From assembly GCA_050014415.1 (NCBI GenBank), contig JBEKDJ010000001.1, forward strand, positions 1-59,940: a DNA stretch of 59,940 bases, written 5' to 3'. The position numbers and the translations under genes are program-made. The notes under the pieces are model-generated. The model was not told where the DNA came from and made no database searches. It saw only the letters and a list, made by a program, of their open reading frames with translations. The first letter of the stretch is position 1, and each line of letters starts with the position of its first letter. The stretch comes from Thermodesulfobacteriota bacterium (GTDB taxonomy: Bacteria > Desulfobacterota > BSN033 > UBA1163). This document shows, one piece after another, positions 32,147 to 54,332 of this stretch.

Positions 32147-32727
32147 ATGGGCCGTACTTCCTATCTAGTGTCTGACGTGCTATGTCTGAATTCATATGCG
32201 GGGGAGAATGCCACGAAATATGCAGCAGAAATGAAAGAAGAGAAAGGGTATGATGTAGATAGAAGGATAGATGGGGACCTTCTCATTATGGCGAGAACAG
32301 ATTTTCTGTCAGTCTTTAGCCTAGAGGATGCTATTGAGCGGGCCAACAGGTATTGGGAGGCAGGCGCAGATCCCCTATTTGTCGAGGCTCCGACTTCGAA
32401 AGAAGAAATGATAAGAATTAATCACGAGATTAATGCTCCCACCATGGCGATACAGATAGAACAAGGCAGAACGGCTATCCTTACCACAACAGAGTTAGAG
32501 GAGATAGGGTTCAATACAGTGGTCTATCCTGGAACTAGTTTTTTGTTGCCGCTTTTGCAATAAAGAAGGTCATGGAAGAGCTTAACCATAAGGGGACCAC
32601 AACAGGTTTCTTGGACAAAATGATCCTTTTTGATGATCTTAATAGACTCGCGGGTCTAGAGAAGGTCCGGGAGATCGAAGCCTATTATCATAAGGACCTT
32701 TTGAACCAGCAAGGAAGAAACCATTAA
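32147..32727 (+). pseudogene. isocitrate lyase/PEP mutase family remnant (methylisocitrate lyase / carboxyvinyl-carboxyphosphonate phosphorylmutase-like), 5'-truncated and frameshifted
   Basis: DLLIMARTD...AIERANRYWEAGADPLFVEAP...TTELEEIGFNTVVYPG matches only the C-terminal half of the family. A stop at 32561-32563 is followed by the family's C-terminal tail in another frame (32572-32727, MEELNHKGTTTGFLDKM...). Confidence 0.65.
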
Positions 32728-33920: not shown

Positions 33921-35273
33921 TTAAATCGGCTTAAGGTATTTCTTCATTATTCTTAGAGCTTTCTCCGGTTCGGATTGGGCAAGCAGACCTGTCGCATACA
34001 TGATGTAGTCTTGGTCAAGATAGAAGTCCGCTCTCCTCGGTTTCAGCAGGCTCCCACTCTCAGAATCAGCGAGGACTCCGCTCAGGATTTCTCTAGGAGA
34101 GGAAGAGCACGTGATGGGACCGCCTGTGCCGATTACGTTGGTCACTTCCGTCAAGTCTTTGCCCACCTGAATGAGCATTTCTCCGTGGGGGCCATAAGCA
34201 ATTTCTAGTTTTCCGACATGCCTCTCAAAGGATGTTTCTACCGCAACACGGGCCAGTTGACCATCCACCGCCATTTCTTTCTCATTTCTTGGAATTCTGC
34301 CTGGGTCAGAGCGGAAGATGGAGACAATCTCTTCGTCCACCGCAATTCCTTTTTTCTTGCAAATTTCCACCAGGGCATCTATATTGTGCCGCACACCAAG
34401 ATCGCCCTCCACGGTTCTTTTTGCGAACGGCTCCGGCAGACCTTTCAAGAATACCACTCCTCTGGTCGGAGTTCCTTGTGCGATGGAATAGACATCCGTC
34501 GTGGCGCCTCCCACATCAATGACGATGATTTCCCCCAGTCCCTCGCCTTCTTTGGCGCCGGTACTGAGGAGGACTGCAGCATTCAATACGGCTACAGGGG
34601 TAGGCATGATGATATTGCTCACCAGTTCCTTGGCCTTGTCTAACCCCTTGGTCTTAACGATGTTCTGCATGAATACTTCTCTTATAGCCTCACGACAAGC
34701 CTGGACTTCCAGTTTTCCTATCTCGGGCATCACATTCTCGACAAACCTTGCCGTCTTAGCTGAGGCGCTGAAAATCTGGCCGATCTTATCATAGGCGCAC
34801 TTATTACCCGCTACGACGATTGGAGCATCTATTTGGGATCGCGACAGAAGACCCGCATTGTGGACGATGGCGCTTTCATTCCCTCCGTTGGTACCGCCGG
34901 CGAGAAGGATAAGGTCTGGAGAGGTTTCCTCTATCTGACTGATCTCCCTGTGAGTAAGTTGATAGCAGTAATGGCCTACCATTTTTGCCCCGGCCCCCAA
35001 AGCAGCTCGCTTGGCTGCCTCGGAGCTAAGCTCGGGTACCAGGCCGATAGAAACCATGCGCAGCCCTCCCGCAGCACTGCTGCACGCGATCATTTCCTTC
35101 GCCTTTGTGCTCCCGATCTTTTCCTCTATCTTTCCTAAAGCATTCTTAAGGCCAATGGTGACGTCCTCTTTGACGGTCGTGGGTGCTTTGGCTGTTGAAA
35201 GAACCAGTTCTTCGTCCAGGTCTATGGCTACCGCCTTAGTAAAGGTGCTCCCTATGTCGATCAACAGCTTCAT
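33921..35273 (-). CDS. glmL: GlmL/MutL-type glutamate mutase accessory protein (ASKHA-fold reactivase/chaperone candidate)
   Basis: MKLLIDIGSTFTKAVAIDL opening, a second phosphate motif VIDVGGATTDV, about 450 aa. The start is ATG 35273 or 35288. Confidence 0.75.
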   Translation of the reverse strand: MKLLIDIGSTFTKAVAIDLDEELVLSTAKAPTTVKEDVTIGLKNALGKIEEKIGSTKAKEMIACSSAAGGLRMVSIGLVPELSSEAAKRAALGAGAKMVGHYCYQLTHREISQIEETSPDLILLAGGTNGGNESAIVHNAGLLSRSQIDAPIVVAGNKCAYDKIGQIFSASAKTARFVENVMPEIGKLEVQACREAIREVFMQNIVKTKGLDKAKELVSNIIMPTPVAVLNAAVLLSTGAKEGEGLGEIIVIDVGGATTDVYSIAQGTPTRGVVFLKGLPEPFAKRTVEGDLGVRHNIDALVEICKKKGIAVDEEIVSIFRSDPGRIPRNEKEMAVDGQLARVAVETSFERHVGKLEIAYGPHGEMLIQVGKDLTEVTNVIGTGGPITCSSSPREILSGVLADSESGSLLKPRRADFYLDQDYIMYATGLLAQSEPEKALRIMKKYLKPI

Positions 35274-35506
35274 GCCCTTCGTCACCATTCTCCCTCATGC
35301 GGAAAGCAACAGAACGCATTCTCCGATCGCGATGCCAAAGCTTGTTTGCCGCTTCTTGTTATGCACGGACATTTACTCTCAGGTCCATTATAGTCCGACT
35401 TTTTTTTATATTTATGATCTAAATCATTGCCGTAATTCAAGGATAACCTATAAAGTAGTGCAAGCTGAATTGCATTGCGAGTGTTTTCGGTTCGAGGTAG
35501 ACTCGG

Positions 35507-37279
35507 ATGATCACAATGCCCAAGGAACTTAGCGACATTATTGGAGCCGCTCTACGTCCCAGAAGGGACGGCGAAGGAAAACTGCTGAGCCTCGACGAGG
35601 CGGTGGGACGTTATGTTAGGCCACGAATGAAACTGCACCTTGCTGCGGGGATTGGAGGACCGAGTGCCGCCATCTGTGAAATCCTCAGGCAATATTCTGG
35701 AAAGACCCCGGAATTTACATTAATTCAAAGCACATTGTCGGGACACGCGCTTAACCTCGTCCATTGCAACCTTGTTAAGAAACTCATCTGCTCAGTCTGC
35801 GCAGACATTTCGGCATCCGGACGGCCCAGCAGGATCATCCAAAGGGCCTACGGAGACAACACAATTCAATTAGAGAATTGGTCCCTTTGTTCGCTTCAGC
35901 AGAGACTCATGGCAGGTGCCCTCGGTGTTCCCTTCCTGCCGACGAGGTCTGTTCTTGGCAGCAGTATTGCCTCTGATAACAAGGAATCTTTCAGAGAAAT
36001 GGAAGATCCTTTTGGGTCTGAAGAGAAGGTTGGCATTGTAGAGGCTCTTAACCCCGATATTTCCATCATCCACGGATGTGTGGGGGATTTGGAAGGAAAC
36101 ATCATTCTGTCCTCTCCCTATGGTGAAGATCTGTGGGGTCCTCTGGCAAGCAGCAACGGAGTCTTGGCGACAGTAGAGAAGATTGTTCCTACCGAATTCA
36201 TAAAGAAATACTCGGCCCTGGTCAAAATCCCGGGCTGTGTTGTCAACGCCGTGTGTGTGGCTCCTTTGGGTTTGCATCCCTTCTCGCTCCCTAACCCGGG
36301 TATCACCGACTTTGATCCTTATGAAAAAGACATTGATTTCTTGAACGAGCTCCATGGGGCATCAAAGAGCGAAAGCACCTTGGACGGCTGGATAAAGGAA
36401 TGGGTCACAGACTGTGCCACACACCAACACTACCTGGACAAATTGGGACAGGGCAGAATAACAAGCCTAAAAGAGAAATCGAAGGACTCAAGAAGCAGAG
36501 TCATGTCAGCTTCCATTCCACAGTCTGAATCGCGAAAAGAAATTGATTCCGATGAAATGATGCTCATCGCCCTATCCAGAGAAATTGTGAACAGCGTGCG
36601 GACCCACGGGCACAGACTGATCCTTGCAGGAGCCGGCACTCGCGGCATCGCAGCATGGTTAGCCTACTACCAGCTTAAGACTGAGGAGTGTGAAATTGAG
36701 CTGATTACAGGAAACGGACAAATTGGCTACCTGCCACTTCCAGGGGAATCGATACTTTCAAGTGAGGCTAGCGTGCGAAGCTCGAAGATGCTGACCGATA
36801 CCATCACGACGCAAGGGGTCTTTGTTGGAGGAAAGAACAACAAGTGTCTCAGCGTGCTGGGTGCAATTCAGATCGATAAATACGGGAACATCAACTCGAC
36901 AATGACTTCTACGAGACAGTTTCTAATGGGTTCTGGTGGGGCAAACGATGCCATGAATGCCCGAGAGGTGATTGTGGCCCTCGATCAATCAAAGGATCGC
37001 TTTGCAGAAGAACTTCCCTATATCACAGGCCGGGGTAAGGCGGTAACTACTGTCGTATCAACGATGGGCATTTTCAAAAAACCAAGCCCCCAGGAGGAAC
37101 TTCATCTTGTCGCATGTTTTCCGAGCGCACAGCCGACGAGCGTGAGAGAAAAGGTAAAGGAAGTTCAGGATCGTTGTGGATGGCCCCTGAAGTTGGCGTC
37201 TCAGATTAAGGAGATATCCAAACCGAGTCAGGGGGAGTTGGATCTGCTTCGGTGGCTTCTCTCCTCACCTTCGTCTTAG
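35507..37279 (+). CDS. fused alpha+beta family I CoA-transferase-like protein (glutaconate/3-oxoacid CoA-transferase fold), catalytic Glu not conserved
   Basis: 590 aa. The N-terminal half is GctA/AtoD-like and the C-terminal half AtoA-like (GAIQIDKYGNINST, MGSGGANDA). The SENG motif position reads TGNG (36707-36718). Confidence 0.8.
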   Translation: MITMPKELSDIIGAALRPRRDGEGKLLSLDEAVGRYVRPRMKLHLAAGIGGPSAAICEILRQYSGKTPEFTLIQSTLSGHALNLVHCNLVKKLICSVCADISASGRPSRIIQRAYGDNTIQLENWSLCSLQQRLMAGALGVPFLPTRSVLGSSIASDNKESFREMEDPFGSEEKVGIVEALNPDISIIHGCVGDLEGNIILSSPYGEDLWGPLASSNGVLATVEKIVPTEFIKKYSALVKIPGCVVNAVCVAPLGLHPFSLPNPGITDFDPYEKDIDFLNELHGASKSESTLDGWIKEWVTDCATHQHYLDKLGQGRITSLKEKSKDSRSRVMSASIPQSESRKEIDSDEMMLIALSREIVNSVRTHGHRLILAGAGTRGIAAWLAYYQLKTEECEIELITGNGQIGYLPLPGESILSSEASVRSSKMLTDTITTQGVFVGGKNNKCLSVLGAIQIDKYGNINSTMTSTRQFLMGSGGANDAMNAREVIVALDQSKDRFAEELPYITGRGKAVTTVVSTMGIFKKPSPQEELHLVACFPSAQPTSVREKVKEVQDRCGWPLKLASQIKEISKPSQGELDLLRWLLSSPSS

Positions 37280-37427: not shown

Positions 37428-38651
37428 ATGAGCGGCCCCTTACGAGGTGTTCGGGTTATAGAATGTGCCGGGTATCTGAGCGCTCCGACAGCCTGTTACA
37501 TGCTGGGTGACCTAGGAGCCGAAATCATTAAGGTGGAGGATAGAGAAAAGGGGGACCCTGCCCGTGGAACATCGGCTCTCTTCGGTACGTCCATGTCTTT
37601 GCCGGACGGAGGCAATATTCTGTTTGAAACGGCCAACCGAAATAAGAAAAGCATCACCCTCGACCTGAAAAAGGAGAAAGGGAGAAAGATCCTCTATCAG
37701 CTGGTTGAATTATCGGAAGTATTTTGTACAAACTTTTCCCAATCAGCGATTGGCAATCTGCAGATTGACTACCAAACCCTGAGCAAGTACAATCCAAAGC
37801 TGATCTATGGGGTTGCGACAGGATACGGGTTGTTAGGGCCCGACAGTAACAAACGAGCTTTCGACAGTATTGCGCAGGCCCGATCCGGAATGATGTATGC
37901 CGCGGGTGGGGACCCCGATGCCCCTCCGTCTCAGATCGGGGGACCGATATTTGATCAGATGACCGGGACTCTTCTGGCCTATGCAATACTGGCTGCGCTT
38001 GTGGCCAAAGATAGGCAGGGGATTGGGCAACAGGTAGAGGTGTCGTTGCTCGGTTCGGCCATACATTTGCAGGCCTACAACATTAATACGGCATTGCTAC
38101 GAGGGCGTCAGATTCCAAGGCCTTCGAGGCGAACATTGAAAAACCCGATGGCCAACCATTACGAGTGTGCCGATGGAGAATGGCTGCTGCTGTCAGAGGC
38201 CCAGTCAGATAGATTCTGGCACAACTTCTGCGTCGCGCTGGGCATTGAGCATCTGGAAAAGAATGAGAAGTTTGCAGACGCTGCCAGAAGGCGTGACAAT
38301 TTCCGGGAGCTCACCGGAATCATTGAAGAAGTCTTCAAGACGAAGAAAAGAGGTGAGTGGATAGCGATTCTGAATGAGAAAGGCGGTGGCCTTGCGTTTT
38401 CACCCGTTCTGAAACCTACCGATCTCTCCTCGGACCCACAAGTGGTACAAAATGACTATATCGTCGAGGTTGACCATCCTTCGCTGGGTCGAATCAGTGT
38501 GATAGGCAATCCAGTCAGTTTCACTGGAACGCCCGTACACATCGACGGCTATGCGCCTCAGTTTGGACAGCATACGGAAGAGGTATTGCTGGATGTGTGT
38601 GGCTACTCCTGGGAACAAATACAGGAATTGAAGGATGAGGAAGTGATTTAG
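37428..38651 (+). CDS. family III (CaiB/BaiF) CoA-transferase, paralogue 3
   Basis: 407 aa. VIECAGYLSAPTACYMLGDLGAEIIKVE, AFDSIAQARSG, catalytic Asp motif PIFDQMTGTLLAYAILAAL. Confidence 0.85.
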   Translation: MSGPLRGVRVIECAGYLSAPTACYMLGDLGAEIIKVEDREKGDPARGTSALFGTSMSLPDGGNILFETANRNKKSITLDLKKEKGRKILYQLVELSEVFCTNFSQSAIGNLQIDYQTLSKYNPKLIYGVATGYGLLGPDSNKRAFDSIAQARSGMMYAAGGDPDAPPSQIGGPIFDQMTGTLLAYAILAALVAKDRQGIGQQVEVSLLGSAIHLQAYNINTALLRGRQIPRPSRRTLKNPMANHYECADGEWLLLSEAQSDRFWHNFCVALGIEHLEKNEKFADAARRRDNFRELTGIIEEVFKTKKRGEWIAILNEKGGGLAFSPVLKPTDLSSDPQVVQNDYIVEVDHPSLGRISVIGNPVSFTGTPVHIDGYAPQFGQHTEEVLLDVCGYSWEQIQELKDEEVI

Positions 38652-38672: not shown

Positions 38673-40136
38673 ATGGAGCCTAAGATCAGGAATAAACGGA
38701 TAGACGAAGACAGGTTCTTGAAAATGAGGGAGCCAGTCCTTGCTCTTTGGCCGACTGGCAAGGAAGTGGATCTCGATGAGGCGATTGAGTATCAGAAGAA
38801 CCTACCTGAGACCAAGAGCTTCTTAAAAGTGATTGAAAGACTCCATCGAGAAGAGAAAACAGTCGTCTTCCCGAGGGCAGGAACGCCGATTCTGGAGGAT
38901 CAGATAAGTCTCTGCAAAAACCTGGAGAGATCGGGAGTTCCGTTCATACCGGTAACAACGGATAGTTACACGCGCTTGCTCCAGTTTAAGAAGGTTGAGG
39001 AGGCGCTTGAGGAGAGCATCAGGACCGCCAAACCAATGCTCAATGGGTATCCTCTTATCAACCATGGGGTAAAAAAGACAAGGAAAGTGATTGAAAGCGT
39101 GAGTGAAGGTGCCTTTGACCCGAGGCTATCGCGTCTGTCCTATCCCCTGGCATCGGAAATTGCCTTTGCCTCAGGGATGACGGGAATTGCGGCCAGTCCG
39201 TTTATCTCATTCGGTGCTTACGAAAAGACTTGTACCCTTGAGGAGTCGATGGCCCAGTGTCAGTACGTTCAGAGGCTGGTCGGGTACTATGCGGATCGGG
39301 GCGTTATCATCACGACCGATAACCACGGATGGATTCCCACCGGTGTCTTCCCGTTGAGCGTCAATCTGGCGACCATGATCGTCGACGCCCTTACCTGTGC
39401 GGAGCAGGGTGTGAAGAGCATTGTCCCGTTGGTTCACAGCATGGGAAACCTTGCTCAGGATCTGGCTTGGATCAGGGTCACGCCGCGATTGATGAGGGAG
39501 TACCTTGACAGATTCGCCTATAAGGACGTGGTCATTCCAGGTAATTTTGCCGCTCAGACGCCGCTCTATCCGATGCCCCAGGGGCTGGGAGGGGCCTTTG
39601 CGTTTCTCAACTATACCGCCGTGCTGGCTGCGCTGGGGAAGGTGGAGTCAGTATTCCTCAGGACAATCGACGAGGGTGCGGGTGTCCCGACGGAAGAGGC
39701 TCATGCACTCAGTTACACATCAGCCAACTGGCTTTTCAATGTGATCAGGGGACAGAAGATCGAATTTGAGATGAAAGGGGTGGATGAGGAAGAGAGAATA
39801 GCAGAAATGGAAATCAGGGCTATTCTGGACAAACTTCTGGAGATAGGAGACGGTGATATCATTGTTGGGTCCACCCGGGGGGTTGAAGCTGGAATGATCG
39901 ATTCGTCCTTCAGCCCGAACAGGACGGTAAGGGACTTGGTCCTCGGAGTGAAAGACAGTAAAGGCGCAGTCCGTTATGCGGAGTTTGGAAATCTTCCCCT
40001 GCCCAAAGAGGCCAAGGAATTCCATCGCCAGAAGCTGGCAGAGAGGGCGAAAGAAGAGGGAAGAAAAATGGATTATGTTGTCACGGTTGAGGATTTCTGG
40101 TCCTTTAGCAAGGGACACCTGATCGGGAAACCGTAA
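38673..40136 (+). CDS. glmE: methylaspartate (glutamate) mutase E-subunit homologue
   Basis: 487 aa, collinear with clostridial GlmE as I remember it (WPTGKEVDL, PRAG, DSYTR, LNGYP, RYAEFGNLP, KGHLIGKP). The central substrate-pocket segment is divergent. Confidence 0.85.
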   Translation: MEPKIRNKRIDEDRFLKMREPVLALWPTGKEVDLDEAIEYQKNLPETKSFLKVIERLHREEKTVVFPRAGTPILEDQISLCKNLERSGVPFIPVTTDSYTRLLQFKKVEEALEESIRTAKPMLNGYPLINHGVKKTRKVIESVSEGAFDPRLSRLSYPLASEIAFASGMTGIAASPFISFGAYEKTCTLEESMAQCQYVQRLVGYYADRGVIITTDNHGWIPTGVFPLSVNLATMIVDALTCAEQGVKSIVPLVHSMGNLAQDLAWIRVTPRLMREYLDRFAYKDVVIPGNFAAQTPLYPMPQGLGGAFAFLNYTAVLAALGKVESVFLRTIDEGAGVPTEEAHALSYTSANWLFNVIRGQKIEFEMKGVDEEERIAEMEIRAILDKLLEIGDGDIIVGSTRGVEAGMIDSSFSPNRTVRDLVLGVKDSKGAVRYAEFGNLPLPKEAKEFHRQKLAERAKEEGRKMDYVVTVEDFWSFSKGHLIGKP

Positions 40137-40183
40137 TAGGTCCTATGTGCCCCATAGGATCTATTAGAAGGAGGATGGTGATC

Positions 40184-40606
40184 ATGAAAAGTCCGACAGT
40201 GATCACAGGCACAGTAGGTATGGATGCTCACGTCATTGGCACCAAAATACTATCCCGTGCTTTACGGGAGGCTGGTTTCAACGTCGTGGAGCTGGGAATC
40301 TTGACTCCTCCGGAGGAGTTTATTCAAGTCGCCATCGAAACAAATGCGGATGCGATCTTAATGAGCTCCCTTTACGGCATGGCCGAGCTAGATGTAAGGG
40401 GATTCAAGGAGAAGTGCGTCGAAGCGGGGCTCGAAAATGTGCTGCTTTACATCGGCGGTATCCTTGGCGTGGGCAGGCACGATTTCAAAGAGGATGAAAT
40501 CAAATTCAAAAGGCTGGGCTTCGACAGGGTCTATCCGCCCGAGGTGGATCTCAAGGGGCCCATTGCAGATCTCTGGACAGACTTGAAGGCCAAAGGGAAG
40601 GCTTGA
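40184..40606 (+). CDS. glmS: methylaspartate mutase S-subunit homologue (B12-binding)
   Basis: DxHxxG base-off/His-on motif (MDAHVIG), ILMSSLYG, LLYIGG. Start placed at ATG 40184, 9 nt after GGAGG; the track start is 40145. Confidence 0.9.
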   Translation: MKSPTVITGTVGMDAHVIGTKILSRALREAGFNVVELGILTPPEEFIQVAIETNADAILMSSLYGMAELDVRGFKEKCVEAGLENVLLYIGGILGVGRHDFKEDEIKFKRLGFDRVYPPEVDLKGPIADLWTDLKAKGKA

Positions 40607-40616
40607 GGTTTGTGAG

Positions 40617-41864
40617 ATGCAAAGAAGGAGAATGTTAGAAGGCTGCCGCGCACTAGACTTGACAGACGAAAAAGGATTTCTGTGCGGCAAGATCCTTGCC
40701 GACCTGGGCATGGATGTTATCAAGGTCGAAAGACCGGGCGGGGACCCATCCCGAAGGCTCGGCCCGTTCTGGAACGATCAAGCTGACCCGGAGAAGAGTC
40801 TCTACTGGTTTGCTTACAACAGTGACAAGCGTGGGATCACCCTCGACATCGAATCAAAAGACGGGAAGAGGATCTTTGAAGAACTGGTCAGGAAATCGGA
40901 CGTTGTCATCGAGTCCTTCAAACCCGGTTATCTAGACAAGCTGGGATTGGGGTATGCTGCATTGAGCGGGATCAAGAAAGAGATCATCGTAACGTCCATA
41001 ACACCCTTCGGTCAGACGGGTCCTTACAGCAGCTATGAGGCGTCTGACATCGTGCTTATGGGAATGGCAGGAGAGCTCTTCCTGACCGGCGAGGGGGACC
41101 GTCCGCCGTTGAACATTAGTGTACCGCAGGCCTGTCTCCATGCGGGTGCGGATGCAGCAGTGGGCACAATGATCGCGTACCACCATAGAAGGAAGACCGG
41201 AGAAGGGCAGCACGTCGATGTGTCGATGCAGCAAAGCGCCGCGTGGTTCCTGGCCTTCACCGTGCCCTACTGGGAGATCGACAAGGTCATCCTGGGCAGG
41301 GTAGGTCCTTTCAGAAGAAGCAGCAGCAGCGGCACCGTACAACGACAGGTGTGGCCGTGCAAGGACGGTTACGTCTTCTTCTACATGATGGGAGGTCAGC
41401 AGGGCGCAAGGCAGTGCCGCCCGCTGGTTAGATGGATGGAAGAGGAGGGGGCGGGTGACGAGTTCCTCCGGACCTTTGAGTGGGAGCGCTTCGACATGCC
41501 GACGGCCACCCAGGAACTCATAGACAAAATCTCGAAGCCCATCGCCGATTTCTTCCTCACCCGGACGAAGATAGAGGCCCTGGATGCCGCAGCATCGAGA
41601 AACATTCCCATCTGCCCGCTCTTGGGCATGCAGGACATACTCGACGATCCAAACCTCTCGGTGAGGGGGTACTGGTCCCAACTCGAATACCCAGAGCTGA
41701 ATGTAACCATCCCCTACCCGAAGCAGTTTGTGAGGTCTTCTGAGAACGAGGTGTCGACTGGTTTCAGGGCGCCGCTTATCGGCGAACACAACGCCGAGGT
41801 TTATGGTGAGATCGGATTCTCTCGACATCAAATTGTGGCCTTGAAAGAGGCAGGGGTGATCTAG
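40617..41864 (+). CDS. family III (CaiB/BaiF) CoA-transferase, paralogue 4
   Basis: 415 aa. ALDLTDEKGFLCGKILADLGMDVIKVE. Catalytic Asp motif HAGADAAVGTMIAY. Confidence 0.85.
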   Translation: MQRRRMLEGCRALDLTDEKGFLCGKILADLGMDVIKVERPGGDPSRRLGPFWNDQADPEKSLYWFAYNSDKRGITLDIESKDGKRIFEELVRKSDVVIESFKPGYLDKLGLGYAALSGIKKEIIVTSITPFGQTGPYSSYEASDIVLMGMAGELFLTGEGDRPPLNISVPQACLHAGADAAVGTMIAYHHRRKTGEGQHVDVSMQQSAAWFLAFTVPYWEIDKVILGRVGPFRRSSSSGTVQRQVWPCKDGYVFFYMMGGQQGARQCRPLVRWMEEEGAGDEFLRTFEWERFDMPTATQELIDKISKPIADFFLTRTKIEALDAAASRNIPICPLLGMQDILDDPNLSVRGYWSQLEYPELNVTIPYPKQFVRSSENEVSTGFRAPLIGEHNAEVYGEIGFSRHQIVALKEAGVI

Positions 41865-42036: not shown

Positions 42037-42600
42037 ATGAGTGGCCACACTCGATTCGAGAAGCTGCTTGAGCCAGGTTATATCGGGTCGGTAAAGACCA
42101 GGAACCGGATCATAAAAACCGGTGCGGGAATGCTCATGTGGCACAAGGACGACGTCCACATGAGGGAAGAGGTAAAGGCTTTCTACGAAAGGATGGCCAG
42201 GGGCGGAGTGGGGCTGCTCATCGTAGAGTCGCCCACCATCGATTATCCTCTGGGCGCGCGCTGGAGGCAACGCTATCGCATCGACGATGACAAATACATT
42301 GAAGGTCTCGGAAAACTGGTTGAGGTCGTCCATAAACACGGCTGTCCCACTTTAATCAGTGAGGTCAAGGAATATGTAGAGATAACGGGCAAGGGGCTCA
42401 CCATTATCAATAAAGAAGGAGAAAGGCAGGTCATCGAGGCCGATACCGTCCTAACCGTCCTGCCGTTGACGCCCAATATGGGGCTGGTGAAGAGCCTGAA
42501 AGGAAAGGTTTCCGAGGTCTACGGCATTGGCGACTGCAAGGAGCCCCATTTGATAGCGGATGCCATCGGCATCAGCCTCCGGACCGCTCGCGCCGTCTAG
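42037..42600 (+). pseudogene. internally deleted OYE-type 2-enoate/2,4-dienoyl-CoA reductase remnant
   Basis: The first 105 aa or so are the start of an OYE TIM barrel (IGSVKTRNRIIKTGAG...ARGGVGLLIVE...VHKHGCPT). This joins directly to the last 80 aa or so of the FAD/NAD(P) domain (VYGIGDCKEPHLIADAIGISLRTA). About 450 aa are missing relative to the intact paralogue at 54333-56222. Confidence 0.6.
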
Positions 42601-42652: not shown

Positions 42653-43870
42653 ATGGAGAACAGAGTATTTTCGGATCTCAAAATTGTCGCTTTCAGCACG
42701 GCCATGGTGGGTCCATTGACACTCAAGTTCTTCGCCGACTATGGCGCGACAGTCATCAGGGTGGAAACGAGCACCCGCCCGTGTGCTACGAGAACATCTT
42801 CTCCTTTCAAAGACGGGAAGCCGGGTCTCAACAGAAGCGGTTATTTCAATCACTTCAGCGCAAATATGATGAGCATGTCTCTCAACATGTCCCATCGCCT
42901 CGCCCTGGGTCTTGCGAAGGAACTCATAGCGCAGTCCGACGTAGTAATGGAGAACTTCACGCCGCAGATCATGGATCGATGGGGTCTTGGTTACGAGGAG
43001 CTGAGGAAGATAAAGCCTGACATCATCATGGTCCGGCAGAACGGTTTCGGCTCGGATGGTCCTTACAGGAACCTGGCTGCCTTCGGCATGACACTGGCTG
43101 CAATTGCCGGGATACCCAATTTCATAGGCTGGGCTGACCGCGGGCCACTGCCGGTAGGTGTAGGTGCATATACCGACTGCATCAGCCCGCGGCTTGCATC
43201 TGCTGCTCTCATTGCGGCCCTTGACTATCGTGGCAGGACTGGCAAGGGCCAACTCATAGAGCTATCCCAGTTTGAAACGGCGCTTTACTTTGTGCTGCCG
43301 GGGCTTCTCGACGCGGCAGTGAACGGTAGGGAGCCGGTCAGAAACGGAAACGCGGTAGCCTATGCTGCTCCACATAACGTCTATGCGTGCAAAGGGAAGG
43401 AGCGGTGGTGTACGATTGCCGTCCTCAATGACACCCATTGGGTAAGGTTGTGCGAGGCTATGGGCAAGCCGGAACTGGCTGGTGATGCACGGTTCGACAC
43501 CTTCCTGAGTCGGAAAGAGCATGAGACAGAACTCGATGAGTTGATCAGGGGGTGGACGGCCCACTATACGGCGGAGGAGGTAACGGCCCGGCTCCAGGGT
43601 GCTGGTGTGCCTGCCGGCGTGGTGGAGAACGCAGCTGACCTCTATGAGGATCCCCAGTTAAGACAGCGTGGCCTCTTGTGGCGTATAAACCACGCCGAGA
43701 TGGGACCATTCACCCATTTGGGCGCGAGTATGCAATTGTCAAGAACACCCGCGCAGGCTTACAGGCCAAGTCCCTGTCTGGGTGAACATACCGAATATGT
43801 CTTAACCAAGATACTAGGAAAGACGGATGAGGAGTTTGTGGAGCTTCTGGGAGCAGGGGTGCTGGAGTGA
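42653..43870 (+). CDS. family III (CaiB/BaiF) CoA-transferase, paralogue 5
   Basis: 405 aa. VAFSTAMVGPLTLKFFADYGATVIRVE. Catalytic Asp motif AYTDCISPRLASAALIAAL. Confidence 0.85.
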   Translation: MENRVFSDLKIVAFSTAMVGPLTLKFFADYGATVIRVETSTRPCATRTSSPFKDGKPGLNRSGYFNHFSANMMSMSLNMSHRLALGLAKELIAQSDVVMENFTPQIMDRWGLGYEELRKIKPDIIMVRQNGFGSDGPYRNLAAFGMTLAAIAGIPNFIGWADRGPLPVGVGAYTDCISPRLASAALIAALDYRGRTGKGQLIELSQFETALYFVLPGLLDAAVNGREPVRNGNAVAYAAPHNVYACKGKERWCTIAVLNDTHWVRLCEAMGKPELAGDARFDTFLSRKEHETELDELIRGWTAHYTAEEVTARLQGAGVPAGVVENAADLYEDPQLRQRGLLWRINHAEMGPFTHLGASMQLSRTPAQAYRPSPCLGEHTEYVLTKILGKTDEEFVELLGAGVLE

Positions 43871-43927
43871 GAAGGGTTTTAGGTGCCAGTGTGAAGAGTC
43901 TGATCAATCTCTTTGGAGGAAAAAGTC

Positions 43928-44794
43928 ATGGAATATGAATATGTCTTGTACAAAAAGGAAGGGCAAGTTGCTTATATTACGTTAAACAGGCCCGAAAGGC
44001 TGAATGCAGTGTCTCCGGAATTGGTCCGCGACTGGTCGGCTGCAATGACCGAAGCAGAGGACGATGAAGATGTCAAGGTCATCGTCTTCAAGGGTGCTGG
44101 TCGGGCCTTCAGCGCAGGAGCAGATCTGACAGGGGTTGGATTTGTCTATGGCATGAAGGAGCCCAAGCCGGGTGAGAAGGGTGGTCGAGTCCCTTTACGG
44201 GTAAAGCTGAAATTCGATAGAAACCTATTTCTGGAATTTCACAGGAAAGTCCTGCTGTGCCCAAAACTGACGATTGCCCAGATGCACGAATACTGTCTGG
44301 GGATTGCCTTCAACATCGTGCTCCACTGTGATCTGCTCATTGCGAGTGAAGACTGTAAGGTGGGTCACGTTGAAGAGAGGTTAGGCCAGGGAGGCATGAC
44401 GATTTCGCCGATCATGGTTTTGAGATGTGGATTAACGAGGGCCCTGGACCTGTGTCTTACGGGTAAGATGATTGACGGGAAGAAGGCAGCAGAATGGGCT
44501 CTTGTCAATAGGGCAGTGCCTAAGGAGATTCTTGATGATGAGGTTCGGGAGCTTGCAAATGGACTGGCTCTCTATCCCAAAGATGGTATTGCTGTTGGTA
44601 AGGTAGCGAGACACATGCTATATCAAACAATGGGTGTGGAAAAGGGGTTAGTGGATCATTTCATTATGCACACTCTTCAAACAAATAAGGTCTATGACCC
44701 AGGGGAGTTTAACTTCTTTAAACAGAGAAGGGACAAAGGAGTGAGGGACGCCGCCCATGAAAAGCACGACCTATTTAAGGCTCTGGATAAATGA
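43928..44794 (+). CDS. crotonase-superfamily (enoyl-CoA hydratase/isomerase family) protein
   Basis: YITLNRPERLNA, FSAGADL oxyanion region. The active-site segment CLGIAFNIVLHCDLLIASEDCKVGHVEERLG has Asn at the first catalytic Glu position and keeps the second Glu. Start at ATG 43928 after GGAGGA. Confidence 0.85.
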   Translation: MEYEYVLYKKEGQVAYITLNRPERLNAVSPELVRDWSAAMTEAEDDEDVKVIVFKGAGRAFSAGADLTGVGFVYGMKEPKPGEKGGRVPLRVKLKFDRNLFLEFHRKVLLCPKLTIAQMHEYCLGIAFNIVLHCDLLIASEDCKVGHVEERLGQGGMTISPIMVLRCGLTRALDLCLTGKMIDGKKAAEWALVNRAVPKEILDDEVRELANGLALYPKDGIAVGKVARHMLYQTMGVEKGLVDHFIMHTLQTNKVYDPGEFNFFKQRRDKGVRDAAHEKHDLFKALDK

Positions 44795-44833: not shown

Positions 44834-46213
44834 GTGGATGCAACGTACTTATTTGCAAAGAATCTGACAAATATTCGATATGAAGACCTTCCCCCAGGAG
44901 TCGTGGAGGCGACAAAAAAGCAGGTTCTCGATCTGTTGGGTGTTGCAGTCGGTGGCTTTTCCAAACCCGGGCCGAAGGAGCTGCGAGAAATCGTAACAGA
45001 TTGGGGAGGTAAAGAGGAGAGCAGCATTATTGGCTGCACACAGAAGTTCCCGGCACCCAATGCGGCACACGTGAACGCGACCATGGCCCATGCCCTCGAT
45101 TATGATGATGTCCACGAGACGGCCATCATGCATTCAGGCGTTGCTATTATACCAACGTGCATAGCAATGGCCGAGTGTCGAGGCAATGTAAGCGGTAGGG
45201 AGCTAGTTGCAAGTATTGCCTTGGGGGTAGATATGATGTGCAGGCTGGCATTAGCCACCACCCCAGGAACCCGCCCTCTCAACACCGGCTGGCATCTCAC
45301 GACGCTGTATGGTTTCTTGGGTGCGGCTGGTACTGCTGCAAGAATGTTGAGGCTCGATGAAGGGGGAATCCTAAATGCCCTTGGAATTGCGTATCACCAG
45401 TGCAGCGGGAATGGGCAATGTGTCATTGATGGCGCATTAACCAAAAGGATGGGACCTGGATTTTCGGTGAAGGGGGGTATTACTGCCGCCCTGCTTGCTG
45501 AAAAGGGTGTGAGTGGGGCTAAGAACTGCCTGGAAGGAGAGTGGGGTCTGTACAAGCTCTACCACCGTGGAAATTACAATGCCAAAGCCTTGACGATGGA
45601 TTTGGGAGAAACCTTTGAGGGGATTAACGTTGCCATAAAACCATACCCTTGTTGCAGAGGCGTTCATCCCGCGATCGATGCTGCCCTAGCCCTGGTAGAT
45701 GAACACAACATCAAGGCTGAAGACGTGCAGAAAATCACACTGTCTGTGAGCGAGGGGCACTATCATTTACTCTGTGAGCCTGAAGATGCGAAGCTCAAAC
45801 CCCGGAACCCGGTGGATGCGCAGTTCAGCATACCTTGGGGAGTGGCGACCGCGATTGTCAGGAAGGGAGTCACCCTGGAACATTTTACGGAAGCAGCCGT
45901 CAAGAGCCAAGACATCCTCGGGGTCGTTAACAAGATGAGCATAGAGCAGGATACCAGCCTAAATCGGTCAGAAAAGATTGAACCCACCCGGGTGAAGATA
46001 AGAACGAAAGAAGGGAGTGTTTATTCCAAAGAAGTGGAAGATCCCTTGGGTAGCCTCGAAAGACCTATGTCGTTCGATGACTGTGCCAGGAAATTCAGGG
46101 ATTGTGCGAAGCAGCTGCGGGACGAACAAGCAGATAGGGTGATAGAACTGATTGGAAGGCTCGAGCGGCTTAACGACATCAGAGAGATAATCAAACCGCT
46201 CAGCCTGGGGTAA
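44834..46213 (+). CDS. MmgE/PrpD family protein (2-methylcitrate dehydratase-like)
   Basis: 459 aa, GTG start. Typical family length and motifs (ATMAHALDYDDVH, GWHLT, YHQCSGN, IKPYPCCR). Confidence 0.85.
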   Translation: MDATYLFAKNLTNIRYEDLPPGVVEATKKQVLDLLGVAVGGFSKPGPKELREIVTDWGGKEESSIIGCTQKFPAPNAAHVNATMAHALDYDDVHETAIMHSGVAIIPTCIAMAECRGNVSGRELVASIALGVDMMCRLALATTPGTRPLNTGWHLTTLYGFLGAAGTAARMLRLDEGGILNALGIAYHQCSGNGQCVIDGALTKRMGPGFSVKGGITAALLAEKGVSGAKNCLEGEWGLYKLYHRGNYNAKALTMDLGETFEGINVAIKPYPCCRGVHPAIDAALALVDEHNIKAEDVQKITLSVSEGHYHLLCEPEDAKLKPRNPVDAQFSIPWGVATAIVRKGVTLEHFTEAAVKSQDILGVVNKMSIEQDTSLNRSEKIEPTRVKIRTKEGSVYSKEVEDPLGSLERPMSFDDCARKFRDCAKQLRDEQADRVIELIGRLERLNDIREIIKPLSLG

Positions 46214-46307
46214 GTTTCGACGGCCCTCTCGACCAGGCGACCCTGGCCGGGAAGTGCAAACAAGTAGGACAGGAGTTAGAATTCGTATTGTAAGGAGGCG
46301 TCAGAAA

Positions 46308-47069
46308 ATGGCGGAAGGGTTTGAGGGAAAGGCAGTGCTGGTAACCGGAGGAGGCTATGGGATAGGTCGGGCAGCGGCCTTAGGCTTTGCTCGGAGGGGG
46401 GCAAAAGTCGCGGTAGCAGACATAGACATCAAGAATGGGAAAGAAACCGTTCGCCGTATCAAAGAGGCGGGAGGTGATGCGGTTTTCGTGAAGGCCGACG
46501 TGTCACAGGAGGCTGAGGTCGAAGCCCTTATTAAGAAAACCGTCGAAACTTACGGCAAGCTAGACTGCGCCTTCAACAATGCGGGTATTCACAAGGTGTT
46601 TGTCTCCACCGTCGACTTCACTGAAAAGGACTGGAATGAAATGATCGACATCAACCTCAAAAGCGTATGGCTCTGTATGAAATATGAAATCCCCGAGATG
46701 CTGAAACAGGGCAAAGGAGCCATCGTTAATACGTCGTCGGCAGCAGGTTTGATCGCCGCGCCGAGCAACCCTGCCTATCCCGCGAGCAAGCACGGGGTTG
46801 TGGGATTGACAAAATCGACTGCCGTGGAGTTTGCGAGGAGGGGCATCCGGGTCAATTGCGTCTGCCCTGGCCCCACACGGACAGGAATGCATGACAGCTT
46901 GGTGGCCATTGCTCCACAAATCGTTGAGGCGATGAATATGAAGGTGCCGATGGGGCGGATAGCCGAGCCCGAAGAGGTTGCTGCAGCTGCCGTCTGGCTC
47001 TGCTCAGACGAGGCCTCCTATATTACGGGTCACGCCCTGCCCGTAGATGGCGGTCTGGTAGTGGATTGA
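46308..47069 (+). CDS. SDR family oxidoreductase
   Basis: TGGGYGIG, NNAG, YPASK (YxxxK), PVDGG. ATG 46308 is preceded by AAGGAGG; the track start at 46254 is an unlikely extension. Confidence 0.9.
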   Translation: MAEGFEGKAVLVTGGGYGIGRAAALGFARRGAKVAVADIDIKNGKETVRRIKEAGGDAVFVKADVSQEAEVEALIKKTVETYGKLDCAFNNAGIHKVFVSTVDFTEKDWNEMIDINLKSVWLCMKYEIPEMLKQGKGAIVNTSSAAGLIAAPSNPAYPASKHGVVGLTKSTAVEFARRGIRVNCVCPGPTRTGMHDSLVAIAPQIVEAMNMKVPMGRIAEPEEVAAAAVWLCSDEASYITGHALPVDGGLVVD

Positions 47070-47472: not shown

Positions 47473-48945
47473 ATGGTAGAAATTACTGAGAACACCGATC
47501 TCGTTGTGATCGGGTCTGGAGCAACAGGCACGGTGGCAGCCTTGACCGCCGCAGAAGGCGGCGCCAAGGTGATCCTTATTGAGAAGATGCGAAGCCTGGG
47601 GGGGGTCTCGAATTTCGCCGAAGGGATGTTTGCTGCGGAGAGTGATATGCAGCGTCCACAGTATGTCACCTACGATCGCGACGTCGCCTTCAAGACGATC
47701 ATGGAGTACAGCCACTGGCGCGCCAACCCGCGTTTAGTGAGGGCGTTTGTGAACGAGACTGCCGCCACAATCAGCTGGTTGCAAGAGCGCGGAGTGGAGT
47801 TCGAGGAACTCTCGACTAACATGCCCGACGGCCCTCTGGTCTGGCATGTCTTGAAGGGGCCGGATCGAGAGCGGGCATCCCTTATGATGAAGACGCTGGC
47901 TGCCAAGGCCAAAGAGAGAGGCGTTGCCTTCTGGCTGGGGACACCGGCAAAAGAACTGATCAAGGAGGGCGGCAAGATCACCGGCGTGACTGTCGAGAAG
48001 GATGGCAAAGAAGCCCAGGTGAGCGCCAAAGCTGTCCTTGTGGCTACGGGTGGCTACGCAAACAACAAGGAATGGATCAAGAAGTATACGGGATTTGACC
48101 TCGGTGTCAATCTGATTCCAATCGGTAACATTGATAAGATGGGTGAAGGCATCCGGATGGCCTGGCAGGTAGGCGCGGCTGAAGAGGGCATGGGCGTCCT
48201 CCAACTCCTCAGGGGAGGACCGGTATTGGGCCCGGGTCTCAGTTTCATTGGACCGATCGAAAGCGCGGCGTCCCAGCCCGGCCTTTGGGTGAATCAGGAT
48301 GGAGAGCGCTATTGCGACGAAAGCATTCAAGGCAACTTTTCCCTCGATGGCAACGCCATGGTCAGCCAGAGAGGGAGATATGTCTATGCGATTTTTGATG
48401 AGTCGAATGTTCGTCATTGGATGGAAAAGGGAACGGACCTGGGTACAGGCCGCATTTTCCCTCCCGGGAGCCGCCTCAATATCGGTCCGGCGCTGAAGGA
48501 TGCACTTAAAAACAACGCCCCTGACATATATGCCGCGAAAACCATAGAAGAGCTGGCCGTGAAAATCGGGATGGATCCCCTCATCCTAGAGGCTACCGTC
48601 GAGGAATACAACGGATTCTGTGAGAAGGGCCATGACGACCTCTTTGCCAAGGATCCAAAATACCTCCGACCCTTGAAGGAACCGAAGTTTTATGCCCTCA
48701 AGTGTAACGCAGTCTTCCTGGGAACACTCGGCGGCATCAAGATCAACCACAAAATGGAAGTAGTGGACAAGAAGGACAATCCGATCCCAGGACTCTACGC
48801 AGGGGGAATGGATGCGGGAGGAATCTATGGAGACTCTTATGACGTAATGACGTGTGGCGGGACCCTTGCCTTCGCCATCAATTCCGGCCGCATTGCGGGG
48901 AGAAATGCCCTGGAATATATCGGCAAACAAACTCGCCTGTGCTGA
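47473..48945 (+). CDS. soluble FAD_binding_2 flavoprotein (fumarate reductase / 3-ketosteroid dehydrogenase / TcuA-like), paralogue 1
   Basis: 490 aa. N-terminal dinucleotide fold DLVVIGSGATGTVAALTAAEGGAKVILIEK, ATGGYANN, C-terminal GLYAGG. No signal peptide. Confidence 0.85.
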   Translation: MVEITENTDLVVIGSGATGTVAALTAAEGGAKVILIEKMRSLGGVSNFAEGMFAAESDMQRPQYVTYDRDVAFKTIMEYSHWRANPRLVRAFVNETAATISWLQERGVEFEELSTNMPDGPLVWHVLKGPDRERASLMMKTLAAKAKERGVAFWLGTPAKELIKEGGKITGVTVEKDGKEAQVSAKAVLVATGGYANNKEWIKKYTGFDLGVNLIPIGNIDKMGEGIRMAWQVGAAEEGMGVLQLLRGGPVLGPGLSFIGPIESAASQPGLWVNQDGERYCDESIQGNFSLDGNAMVSQRGRYVYAIFDESNVRHWMEKGTDLGTGRIFPPGSRLNIGPALKDALKNNAPDIYAAKTIEELAVKIGMDPLILEATVEEYNGFCEKGHDDLFAKDPKYLRPLKEPKFYALKCNAVFLGTLGGIKINHKMEVVDKKDNPIPGLYAGGMDAGGIYGDSYDVMTCGGTLAFAINSGRIAGRNALEYIGKQTRLC

Positions 48946-49013
48946 CTTGGCAAGTCGCGGGAGGAGAGGTCTTTTCCCGCGTGGGTTATTGAACCAAAGA
49001 TTAAGGATCAACA

Positions 49014-50681: not shown

Positions 50682-50686
50682 ACCTA

Positions 50687-52807: not shown

Positions 52808-52850
52808 TCTGGATCCAACGGCATTTCAACCAGAGCAAGGGAGGGGAACC

Positions 52851-54299: not shown

Positions 54300-54332
54300 T
54301 GGATTGGAGTATTCGGGAAGGGGGGTTCTGAG

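Follow-up and report, generated by a model that had tools for sequence, protein, structure and literature searches.

The locus described here raises the question of which reaction is catalyzed by a protein that carries the automatic annotation methylaspartate mutase. The gene is located in a window of 59,940 nucleotides, the whole stretch of Thermodesulfobacteriota DNA that was analyzed. An earlier, sequence-only reading had tentatively proposed that this protein, which we name GlmE*, resembles the catalytic subunit of glutamate mutase but acts on a substrate that is not an alpha-amino acid.

GlmE* is an intact GlmE homologue with intact partner subunits

The gene at positions 38673..40136 (+ strand) encodes a GlmE-type catalytic (epsilon) subunit of an AdoCbl-dependent mutase of 487 aa. 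It is a full-length homologue of GlmE: it matches the Pfam model PF06368 (Met_asp_mut_E TIM barrel) with an E-value of 2.9e-129, and the structures 6h9e_B/1cb7_B in the PDB match it over the full length (E~1e-95; identity 35%). The AF2 model (pLDDT 90) superposes on GlmE of Clostridium cochlearium with a TM-score of 0.95 and an rmsd of 1.6 Å (Foldseek). GlmE* scores below the cut-off of the NCBIfam equivalog model for GlmE (TIGR01503, 366.9 bits; cut-off 390.1). We also considered that GlmE* might be a decaying pseudogene, which is ruled out by the intact ORF, the intact partner subunits and clear purifying selection across the clade to which it belongs.

The B12-binding (sigma) subunit of the GlmS type is encoded at 40145..40606 (+ strand). 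It scores above the equivalog cut-offs of NF002612 (190 bits; cut-off 110) and TIGR01501 (161 bits; cut-off 135.8), and contains the DxHxxG motif as DAHVIG at residue 27. Translation probably begins at the Met at 40184, which yields a protein of 140 aa, the form annotated in other assemblies. A divergently transcribed gene at 33921..35288 (- strand; PF13941, 5e-163) encodes a GlmL/MutL-type accessory protein, a putative mutase reactivase, which exceeds the cut-off of NF040745 (577 bits; cut-off 475) and is syntenic in the related loci L004 and L010.

The arginine claw is complete and the amine site is replaced

The glutamate mutase pocket binds the glycyl carboxylate through R66 and R149, the acrylate carboxylate through R100 and Y177, and the glycyl amine through a hydrogen bond with E171 (PMC10947579). 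The pocket segment of GlmE*, which comprises barrel strands beta3-beta4 and the next helix, is encoded at 39114..39221 (+ strand) and reads FDPRLSRLSYPLASEIAFASGMTGIAASPFISFGAY, corresponding to residues 148-183 of the 487-aa ORF. We aligned it using HMMER and MAFFT and followed its conservation across the clade.

The clostridial sequence that the sequence-only reading had quoted matches PDB 6h9e_B/1cb7_B exactly, and alignment to the PDB GlmE shows that it was correct in stating that the motifs PRAG (R68) and DSYTR (R101) are retained. It had also found no counterpart of the RHG triplet, which it aligned with PRL. This was off by one residue: RHG corresponds to RLS in DPRLS, and the Arg is kept. 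Both HMMER and MAFFT put R149 on R151, and therefore the third claw Arg is conserved and the arginine claw is complete (R66, R100 and R149 of GlmE are R68, R101 and R151 of GlmE*). Retention of the full claw speaks for a substrate that remains a dicarboxylate with a glutamate-like geometry.

The loss of the His, on the other hand, was read correctly, since both aligners place L152 at the position of H150. Both likewise place A173 at the position of E171, so that the acidic residue of NEGGG is indeed lost; the counterpart of this motif, however, is not GIAAS, as had been proposed, but IAASP, which is followed by a one-residue insertion, and the loop formed by GGG172-174 is remodelled. Thus, of the third Arg, the His and the acidic residue, whose joint conservation had been named as the observation that would speak against a diverged pocket segment, the Arg is conserved and the other two are not. 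The position of Y177 is occupied by F180 according to HMMER and by S179 according to MAFFT, which places the gap elsewhere; neither gives a Tyr. Y181 is retained as Y183.

The positions aligned with G68 and N123, which are adenosine contacts in glutamate mutase according to the literature, are conserved in GlmE*. The position aligned with E330 is conserved too and K326 is replaced by Arg. We take E330 and K326 to be functional residues of the adenosine cavity of glutamate mutase.

The replacements define a discrete and conserved clade

GlmE* belongs to a clade that is large, strongly conserved and spread horizontally. It comprises at least 120 clusters, and the clade-wide counts given here are based on 120 cluster representatives (>=67% identity), which are harbored by MAGs of Thermodesulfobacteriota, Syntrophorhabdaceae, Acidobacteriota and Proteobacteria. 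A scan of genome contigs returned MAGs only and no cultivated carrier, and a full-text literature search found no description of the clade or its operon. The clade is discrete by score, with 544 and 541 bits inside and then 349 bits outside, and it is monophyletic in an NJ tree. Genomes contain two to four paralogues with differing pocket loops, some of them without an adjoining GlmS gene (L006, L022).

All three claw arginines are kept across the 120 representatives; in a set of 36 clade members, R101 and R151 never vary and R68 hardly does. Position 150, by contrast with the invariant His of the canonical enzymes, is L, M, V or I in 116 of the 120 representatives, and position 171 is A in 87, S in 30 and E in one. 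The equally invariant Tyr177 is replaced throughout by Phe or Trp, and the N170 position by I or M. Since the former amine site (E171, H150) is now small or hydrophobic (A/S and L/M/V/I, respectively), it would face a hydrogen, a methylene, an alkyl group or similar. In total, 24 canonical-invariant positions are altered in the clade, 11 of which lie at the C-terminal ends of the barrel strands, i.e., on the catalytic face (binomial p~1e-4). Beyond E171, H150, Y177 and the GGG172-174 loop, twenty more canonical-invariant positions differ, among them K326R, N340H, R213T, W194x and F297M. Several bulky residues have become smaller: W194 is S, N or C, R213 is T or A, L158 is A or G, E171 is A and F297 is M. 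The clade has also gained an invariant Glu184 beside Y183, and new invariant residues His218, His255 and His344. Judging from the sequence, these four residues may extend into the pocket and bring back polar or acid-base functions, perhaps including the binding of an amine.

These data bear on the possibility that GlmE* is a divergent but genuine glutamate mutase. Its automatic annotation, the GlmS and GlmL proteins that pass the glutamate-mutase equivalog models and the intact arginine claw would all fit this. However, E171, H150 and Y177 are replaced throughout the clade, the canonical enzymes form a separate clade in the NJ tree, and GlmE* remains below the TIGR01503 cut-off. In addition, E171 is reportedly required for efficient catalysis by the clostridial enzyme, as judged by mutagenesis, and methylaspartase is absent from all loci scanned (see below). 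We therefore consider a genuine glutamate mutase highly improbable.

Another possible substrate is the oxygen analogue of glutamate, in which case GlmE* would interconvert 2-hydroxyglutarate and 3-methylmalate (or act on a 2-oxoglutarate-type acid). The clostridial glutamate mutase acts slowly on 2-hydroxyglutarate, giving 3-methylmalate, and glutaconate CoA-transferase also accepts 2-hydroxyglutarate; 3-methylmalyl-/citramalyl-CoA chemistry would moreover suit the family-III CoA-transferases encoded nearby, which give weak mesaconate-/mesaconyl-CoA-type matches. What makes this substrate quite unlikely is that the surroundings of C2 have become more hydrophobic (H150L, N170I/M, E171A), whereas an OH or C=O group should have a base or hydrogen-bond partner. 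This objection is weaker if the Ser at position 171 (30/120) or the new His residues take the role of partner.

The mutase genes are embedded among CoA-transferase genes

The window contains an operon in which the order CoAT1 - CoAT3a - GlmE* - GlmS - CoAT3b - (OYE) - CoAT3c - ECH - PrpD-like is conserved in four phyla. CoAT1 (35507..37279, + strand; PF01144) is a fused alpha-beta family-I CoA-transferase that resembles glutaconate CoA-transferase (best PDB matches 1poi_A and 1poi_B) and is syntenic in L004, L005, L007, L008 and L021. CoAT3a (37428..38651, + strand; PF02515, 7e-107) is a family-III CoA-transferase whose closest solved relative is SUGCT, the succinate-hydroxymethylglutarate/glutarate CoA-transferase (PDB 9br6_A, 173 bits); its score of 203 bits with NF052585 (succinate-glutarate CoA-transferase) is below the cut-off.

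Two more family-III enzymes are counterparts of the two chains of benzylsuccinate CoA-transferase. CoAT3b (40617..41864, + strand), which is part of the core synteny, matches chain A (PDB 9fn0_A) with 233 bits and chain B with 96 bits, and CoAT3c (42653..43870, + strand) matches chain B (9fn0_B) with 256 bits, the next match having 163 bits. Like chain B, CoAT3c has a Gly ('aaFGmtl' vs 'mgYGvnl') where CoAT3a has AFD, the Asp of which is presumably the catalytic Asp of family III. In L004 and L019-L021 the genes of the pair lie side by side, and all that separates them in the window, L005 and L008 is an OYE gene or its remnant. CoAT3b and CoAT3c are only ~35-40% identical to BbsE/F, and therefore specificity for benzylsuccinate is not implied.

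The gene between them in the window (42037..42600, + strand) is the in-frame deletion remnant, of 187 aa, of an OYE/Pyr_redox Fe-S flavoenzyme: in a blastp comparison with the L005 orthologue, its residues 2-108 align with 10-116 and its residues 91-187 with 611-706. The full-length gene (~700 aa) occupies the same operon position in Acidobacteriota, and the remnant is also present in L001-L003. Downstream of CoAT3c lies a gene for a crotonase-superfamily protein (ECH; 43913..44794, + strand; PF00378). Alignment to 5zai and 3q0j shows that the protein lacks the first catalytic Glu (GGxE is GIAF[N/T/S]) and keeps the second (GHVEERLG), a motif that is conserved in 8 orthologues. The MmgE/PrpD-family protein encoded next (44834..46213, + strand; PF03972, PF19305) is closest to the B. 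subtilis IRG1 homologue, IDS epimerase and cis-aconitate decarboxylase (CAD; PDB 7bra, 130 bits; 2hp3, 118 bits; CAD, 96 bits), and scores only 34-45 bits with the PrpD equivalog models. Its active site is generally conserved relative to CAD and IDS epimerase, and the alignment does not separate decarboxylase, epimerase and dehydratase. The operon ends with an SDR oxidoreductase gene (46254..47069, + strand; Pfam; NF004818, 347.6 bits, cut-off 336); in some operons of Acidobacteriota, an SDR domain with 31-32% identity to this protein is fused to the PrpD-like protein (753 aa in L005). We deduce the functions of these neighbours from matches to characterised enzymes at 30-40% identity.

In the related loci, the expansion of GlmE* paralogues is accompanied by VprA-like and OYE-type C=C reductases and LivK-type transporters. 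Two FAD_binding_2 proteins were considered as tricarballylate dehydrogenases, a candidate we rejected because vinylphenol reductase scores higher; all these scores are below the cut-offs. Relatives of GlmE* at ~50% identity (L011-L015, L018) lack the CoA-transferase/ECH/PrpD context. In Clostridium, mutS-mutL-mutE-mal operons link glutamate mutase to methylaspartate ammonia-lyase. Pfam searches of 50 ORFs of the window, and the gene tables of L001-L006 and L018-L023, revealed no methylaspartate ammonia-lyase domain.

The many CoA-transferases could have another meaning, namely that they supply the CoA thioester of a dicarboxylic acid as the true substrate of GlmE*. Four to six CoA-transferase genes surround the mutase, and Y177, which in glutamate mutase forms a hydrogen bond with the distal carboxylate, is lost. 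A thioester is nevertheless difficult to reconcile with the conservation of the carboxylate-binding arginines R68, R101 and R151. Moreover, the GlmE* model, superposing on GlmE at 1.6 Å, has neither an extra domain nor a channel-forming insertion, and the known CoA-dependent mutases belong to the MCM family, to which its similarity is remote (TM ~0.5, Foldseek). We thus give this option a slim chance.

A proposed mutase for a free dicarboxylic acid without an amino group

The proposal that the substrate is not an alpha-amino acid is supported by the changes in the pocket (E171, H150), the score below the equivalog cut-off, the absence of methylaspartase and the CoA-transferase neighbours. The clade is always found among CoA-transferase genes, so a non-amino dicarboxylic acid is most likely what is rearranged. 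Based on these sequence features, our preferred reading, which we hold with moderate confidence, is that GlmE*/GlmS, together with the GlmL-like protein, constitute a functional AdoCbl-dependent carbon-skeleton mutase acting on a free dicarboxylic acid that has no alpha-amino group.

By homology with glutamate mutase, binding of the substrate through the retained claw (R68, R101, R151) would lead to homolysis of the Co-C bond, the 5'-deoxyadenosyl radical would then abstract a hydrogen, and a 1,2-shift would interconvert a 2- or 3-substituted glutarate and the matching branched (methyl- or alkyl-substituted) succinate. The homologies of the neighbours suggest a logic for the operon: the glutaconate-CoA-transferase-like and SUGCT-like enzymes may serve the glutarate-type compound, both as acid and as CoA ester, the mutase would act on the free acid, and the BbsE/BbsF-like heteromeric transferase may (re)activate the substituted succinate from a CoA donor. 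Further processing might involve the single-Glu crotonase, the IRG1/IDS-epimerase-like protein and the SDR and, elsewhere, the enoate-reductase-type flavoenzyme.

A special case of this preferred reading is that GlmE* is an isofunctional 2-methyleneglutarate mutase (2-methyleneglutarate <-> (R)-3-methylitaconate) built on the glutamate-mutase scaffold. To our knowledge, this is the only other AdoCbl mutase reaction, and hence the sole precedent, on a free dicarboxylate. A general base is dispensable for an sp2 methylene at C2, which would lie against a hydrophobic wall (E171A, H150L, N170I), the product is a substituted succinate that suits the BbsEF-like CoA-transferase, the single-Glu crotonase could serve as a double-bond isomerase, and the CAD-like protein could make or handle methylene-dicarboxylates. 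However, the window and the related loci show no recognisable genes of the nicotinate pathway (a Mo-hydroxylase/enamidase-type set, a PrpF-type isomerase), 2-methyleneglutarate has no known source in anaerobes of peat and soil, and the several paralogues of a genome, which differ in their pocket loops, speak for a range of substrates and not a single one. All in all, we regard this particular reaction as unlikely.

GlmE* might instead rearrange saturated or bulky free acids, i.e., alkyl- or arylmethyl-succinates and 3-substituted glutarates, the simplest case being methylsuccinate <-> glutarate, a reaction that no B12 enzyme is known to catalyze. The mutase is flanked by CoA-transferases for glutarate-type acids (Gct- and SUGCT-like) and for substituted succinates (BbsE/F-like), many canonical-invariant bulky residues have shrunk (W194, R213, L158, E171, F297), and the paralogue expansion goes together with the VprA-like/OYE-type reductases and LivK-type transporters. 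On the other hand, the reaction would require fragmentation to a non-stabilised carboxymethyl radical, which is harder chemistry than the glycyl-radical route, and no fumarate-adding glycyl-radical enzyme is encoded nearby. In addition, BbsE/F is the sole heteromeric family-III transferase among the PDB matches, so that the similarity may signal 'heteromeric, substituted succinate' and not bulk. We consider these substrates a minor possibility, if one of some weight.

Implications

About a dozen AdoCbl-dependent isomerase reactions are known to us, only two of which use free dicarboxylic acids. The GlmE* clade, which we judge to be a good experimental lead, points to the existence of at least one further reaction of this type, and of a new pathway linked to CoA-transferases, in uncultivated anaerobes from peat, soil and sediment. 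If alkyl- or arylmethyl-succinates are interconverted with 3-substituted glutarates, these anaerobes would be able to connect branched-succinate metabolites with glutaryl-CoA-type catabolism, and the two to four paralogues in each genome would serve a range of substituents. Of the 127 full-length GlmE-superfamily sequences of the tree set, a sample biased toward relatives of GlmE*, only 26 have the canonical pocket, which suggests a much wider uncharacterised radiation of this superfamily. The database names of ten diverse superfamily representatives are all automatic 'methylaspartate mutase' labels that offer no clue to function, and their wholesale application inflates the capacity for glutamate fermentation and the methylaspartate cycle that is inferred from metagenomes.

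Comparison with known systems

The reference system is glutamate mutase, GlmES/MutES, of C. cochlearium and C. tetanomorphum (EC 5.4.99.1; PDB 1cb7, 1ccw, 1i9c, 6h9e). GlmE*/GlmS has in common with it a TIM-barrel E subunit, a small Rossmann-fold B12-binding S subunit with DxHxxG and a GlmL-type accessory gene; unlike GlmES, it has no methylaspartase neighbour and is set among CoA-transferases instead. The methylaspartate cycle and glutamate fermentation via 3-methylaspartate likewise combine a GlmE-type mutase with family-III C5-dicarboxylate CoA-transferases (mesaconate CoA-transferase in haloarchaea), but no methylaspartate ammonia-lyase, MaoC-type mesaconyl-CoA hydratase or malyl-CoA/citramalate lyase was recognised here.

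2-Methyleneglutarate mutase of Eubacterium barkeri (EC 5.4.99.4), which we compared by description only, is an AdoCbl mutase for a free non-amino dicarboxylate with a C5 backbone, and the only known functional precedent for what the GlmE* pocket suggests. It is a single polypeptide of ~614 aa from the nicotinate fermentation pathway, whereas the window has no genes of that pathway. Finally, the benzylsuccinate beta-oxidation module of Thauera, Aromatoleum and Geobacter (CoA-transferase BbsEF, hydratase BbsH, dehydrogenase BbsCD) is similar in that BbsE/F have their counterparts in CoAT3b/CoAT3c, followed by a crotonase and an SDR. Unlike that module, the GlmE* operon does without benzylsuccinate synthase, the acyl-CoA dehydrogenase BbsG and the thiolase BbsAB, and contains a crotonase that is one Glu short, a B12 mutase and a PrpD/IRG1-like protein.

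Results

The ORF at 38673..40136 (+) encodes a full-length GlmE homologue of 487 aa, in which the stretch 39114-39221, translating to FDPRLSRLSYPLASEIAFASGMTGIAASPFISFGAY, corresponds to residues 148-183. It matches Pfam Met_asp_mut_E over the entire profile (2.9e-129), and its sole solved relatives by sequence are structures of C. cochlearium GlmE (6h9e_B and 1cb7_B; E~1e-95, residues 5-487). We refer to the variant clade of catalytic (epsilon) subunits that includes this protein as GlmE*. An AlphaFold2 model of GlmE* with 36 clade sequences as input (mean pLDDT 90.1, pTM 0.92) superposes on GlmE (35% identity) with a TM of 0.95 and an rmsd of 1.6 A; the next structural matches, lysine aminomutase and methylmalonyl-CoA mutase, reach a TM of ~0.5. 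With TIGR01503, the NCBI equivalog model for GlmE, the window protein scores 366.9 bits, below the cut-off of 390.1, and in accordance with this GenBank names it 'hypothetical'; JGI labels it 'methylaspartate mutase epsilon subunit'.

Residue correspondence was taken from HMMER and, independently, from 231 members of the family aligned with MAFFT; the two agree at most positions. The GlmE residues R66, R100 and R149 align with R68, R101 and R151 of the window protein, H150 with L152, N170 with I172, E171 with A173, Y181 with Y183, K326 with R330 and E330 with E334. The GGG172-174 loop of GlmE is ASP followed by a one-residue insertion, and the counterpart of Y177 is F180 (HMMER) or S179 (MAFFT), in neither case a tyrosine. 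In GlmE, an arginine claw formed by R66, R100 and R149 grips both carboxylates of the substrate, the glycyl amine is hydrogen-bonded by E171, and the acrylate carboxylate is bound by R100 and Y177 (PMC10947579). Given these roles, and because the claw arginines are kept and E171 is replaced, the window protein has retained the dicarboxylate grip and lost the amine contact. The sequence-only reading had quoted a clostridial segment that is identical to the PDB sequence, and both alignments bear out its assignment of R68 and R101 to the claw as well as its claim that the acidic residue of NEGGG is lost. Its alignment of RHG with PRL was off by one residue. The true counterpart of RHG is RLS, and the third claw arginine, which it had thought missing, is present; the loss of His150 stands. 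The earlier finding is thus real and its interpretation largely correct, apart from the mis-called third arginine.

Several features make it very likely that the GlmE*/GlmS enzyme is active. The next gene (40145..40606) encodes a canonical GlmS that passes both GlmS equivalog models and carries the base-off/His-on motif DAHVIG, and an accessory protein of GlmL type, likewise above the cut-off of its equivalog model, is encoded upstream at 33921..35288, on the strand opposite to the mutase. G68 and N123, whose backbone carbonyls hydrogen-bond the adenosine, are conserved in GlmE*, as is E330, a ribose contact. Some relatives have E and S joined in a single protein of 641-656 aa.

A search of 5.8 billion proteins (8000 candidates scored) gave 1158 matches at E<=1e-20; each of the best 120 shares at least 67% identity with the window protein. 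Among these 120, the three claw arginines are retained with a single exception (Lys at position 66), 116 have L, M, V or I at position 150, and at position 171 there are 87 with Ala and 30 with Ser. Only two close representatives (544 and 541 bits) were present in a library clustered at 50% identity, and the next match fell to 349 bits. Our tree set comprised 127 full-length GlmE-superfamily sequences (111 representatives at 50% identity, from P0121-P0270, C. cochlearium GlmE and 15 window-clade members); in this set, which is biased because it was ranked by similarity to the window protein, only 26 have the canonical R66/R100/R149/H150/E171/Y177 pocket. By neighbour-joining, GlmE* is monophyletic and well apart from the canonical glutamate mutases, all of which read R-R-R-H-E-Y. 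The other non-clade sequences form many deep clades with differing pocket signatures, several without one or two claw arginines; every source-named non-canonical sequence among them is labelled 'methylaspartate mutase'.

Across the whole GlmE* clade, 24 positions that are (near-)invariant in the 26 canonical enzymes are replaced. Eleven of them lie at the C-terminal ends of barrel strands, that is, on the catalytic face, which makes up 13% of the sequence (binomial p~1e-4). The same face carries the clade-specific invariant residues D216, H218, W220, H255, R330 and H344, and E184, adjoining Y183, is also invariant within the clade. The pocket changes are neither chance nor decay. As a caveat, E184 or one of the clade's new histidines may extend into the pocket.

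One 69% identical clade member (P0114; L022 10001-11464) has Lys at the R66 position and the loop 'IEAS', with Glu where other members have Ala or Ser; beside it lie two FAD_binding_2 genes and one gene of the glyoxalase fold, but no CoA-transferase genes. Single loci of other genomes (L006 8462-13538; L021 3545-11458; L023 626-13748) hold two to four GlmE* paralogues, which differ in the 170-177 loop and some of which lack an adjacent GlmS. Several paralogues in one locus suggest a family of related substrates.

The mutase operon is conserved across MAGs that carry the labels Thermodesulfobacteriota, Syntrophorhabdaceae, Acidobacteriota and Proteobacteria. It comprises a fused family-I CoA-transferase, for which the two glutaconate CoA-transferase subunits are the best matches of solved structure; a family-III CoA-transferase, a (37428..38651, +), nearest to succinate-hydroxymethylglutarate (glutarate) CoA-transferase; GlmE* and GlmS; two further family-III CoA-transferases, b (40617..41864, +) and c (42653..43870, +); a crotonase (43913..44794, +); an MmgE/PrpD-family protein; and an SDR. 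GlmE*(S), b, c, crotonase and the PrpD-like protein form the minimal core, present everywhere. Because b specifically matches chain A of benzylsuccinate CoA-transferase 9fn0 (233 bits; chain B, 96) and c chain B (256 bits; next match, 163), the two most probably assemble into a BbsE/F-like heteromer with a substituted succinate as substrate. In the crotonase the first catalytic Glu is replaced (GGxE to GIAF-N/T/S, with GIAFN in the window; 8/8 orthologues examined), part of the oxyanion-hole glycines is lost as well, and the second Glu (GHVEERLG) is retained, which makes a simple hydratase improbable. The PrpD-like protein falls closest to the IRG1/cis-aconitate decarboxylase/iminodisuccinate-epimerase branch, whose enzymes all use or make substituted succinates.

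Between b and c, Acidobacteriota operons carry a gene for an OYE (old-yellow-enzyme-type)/Fe-S flavoenzyme of ~700 aa. The window has an OYE/Pyr_redox Fe-S remnant of 187 aa there (42037..42600, +) with an in-frame internal deletion of about 495 codons; what is left corresponds to the two ends of the Acidobacteriota orthologue (~108 aa at the N-terminus, ~97 aa at the C-terminus). Since three independent assemblies (ENA, Logan and JGI) contain this remnant, it is not an assembly artefact.

The window contains five family-III and one family-I CoA-transferases in total. A second adjacent family-III pair lies at 27828..30265 (-), 3.6 kb upstream of the GlmL gene; in L010 the place of b and c beside the crotonase is taken by a pair weakly similar to it. 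Immediately downstream of the operon, the block 47473..56222 (+) encodes two FAD_binding_2 flavoproteins, for which vinylphenol reductase VprA is the best NCBIfam match though below cut-off, together with a NuoF-like protein, a NuoG/GltD-like fusion and an OYE enzyme similar to BaiCD/bilirubin reductase. This gene content suggests an NAD(P)H-linked system for C=C reduction. In L021, too, the operon is followed by the NuoF and GltD pair, and in L006 and L022 VprA-like genes stand alongside GlmE* paralogues. Directly after an MFS transporter gene, a 138-aa ORF (32148..32564, +) aligns with no more than the C-terminal half of the PEP-mutase/isocitrate-lyase family, to which methylisocitrate and 2,3-dimethylmalate lyases belong; the gene is apparently truncated, and no full-length counterpart was seen in related loci.

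Discussion

In the glutamate mutase reaction, a 2-substituted glutarate becomes a 2-substituted 3-methylsuccinate. The simplest reading, which we hold to be reasonably probable, is that GlmE* would catalyze a skeleton change of this type on a non-amino dicarboxylic acid. The dicarboxylate would be gripped by a GlmES-type AdoCbl mutase through the arginine claw, a small, hydrophobic surface would face the former site of glutamate's amine, and by homology a radical mechanism (Co-C homolysis, H abstraction, 1,2-shift) would operate. The mutase is flanked by glutarate/glutaconate-type transferases on one side and a substituted-succinate transferase on the other. For the substrate pair, our first, tentative preference is a saturated or alkyl/aryl-substituted one (methylsuccinate/glutarate and homologues), followed by 2-methyleneglutarate/3-methylitaconate, which we think rather unlikely, and thirdly by 2-hydroxy- or 2-oxoglutarate-type acids, which seem doubtful. 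A CoA ester as substrate, which the flanking transferases could supply, is likewise improbable, given the retained claw.

In full-text searches of the literature, neither the GlmE* clade nor its operon was found described. GlmE* represents a new, widespread variant of glutamate-mutase-type enzyme and a worthwhile target for enzymology, and caution is needed with metagenomes, in which GlmE* genes are annotated 'methylaspartate mutase'.

GlmE* shares with glutamate mutase its fold, its cofactor-binding partner and the claw. However, it fails three defining features (E171, H150/Y177 and the curated equivalog score), and the usual methylaspartase linkage is absent: no methylaspartate ammonia-lyase domain was detected in the 50 larger ORFs scanned in the 60-kb window, or in the Pfam-annotated gene tables of related loci. 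For these reasons GlmE* should not be classed as a glutamate mutase, and a genuine one appears very improbable. For action on a free dicarboxylate that bears no amino group, 2-methyleneglutarate mutase is the functional precedent.
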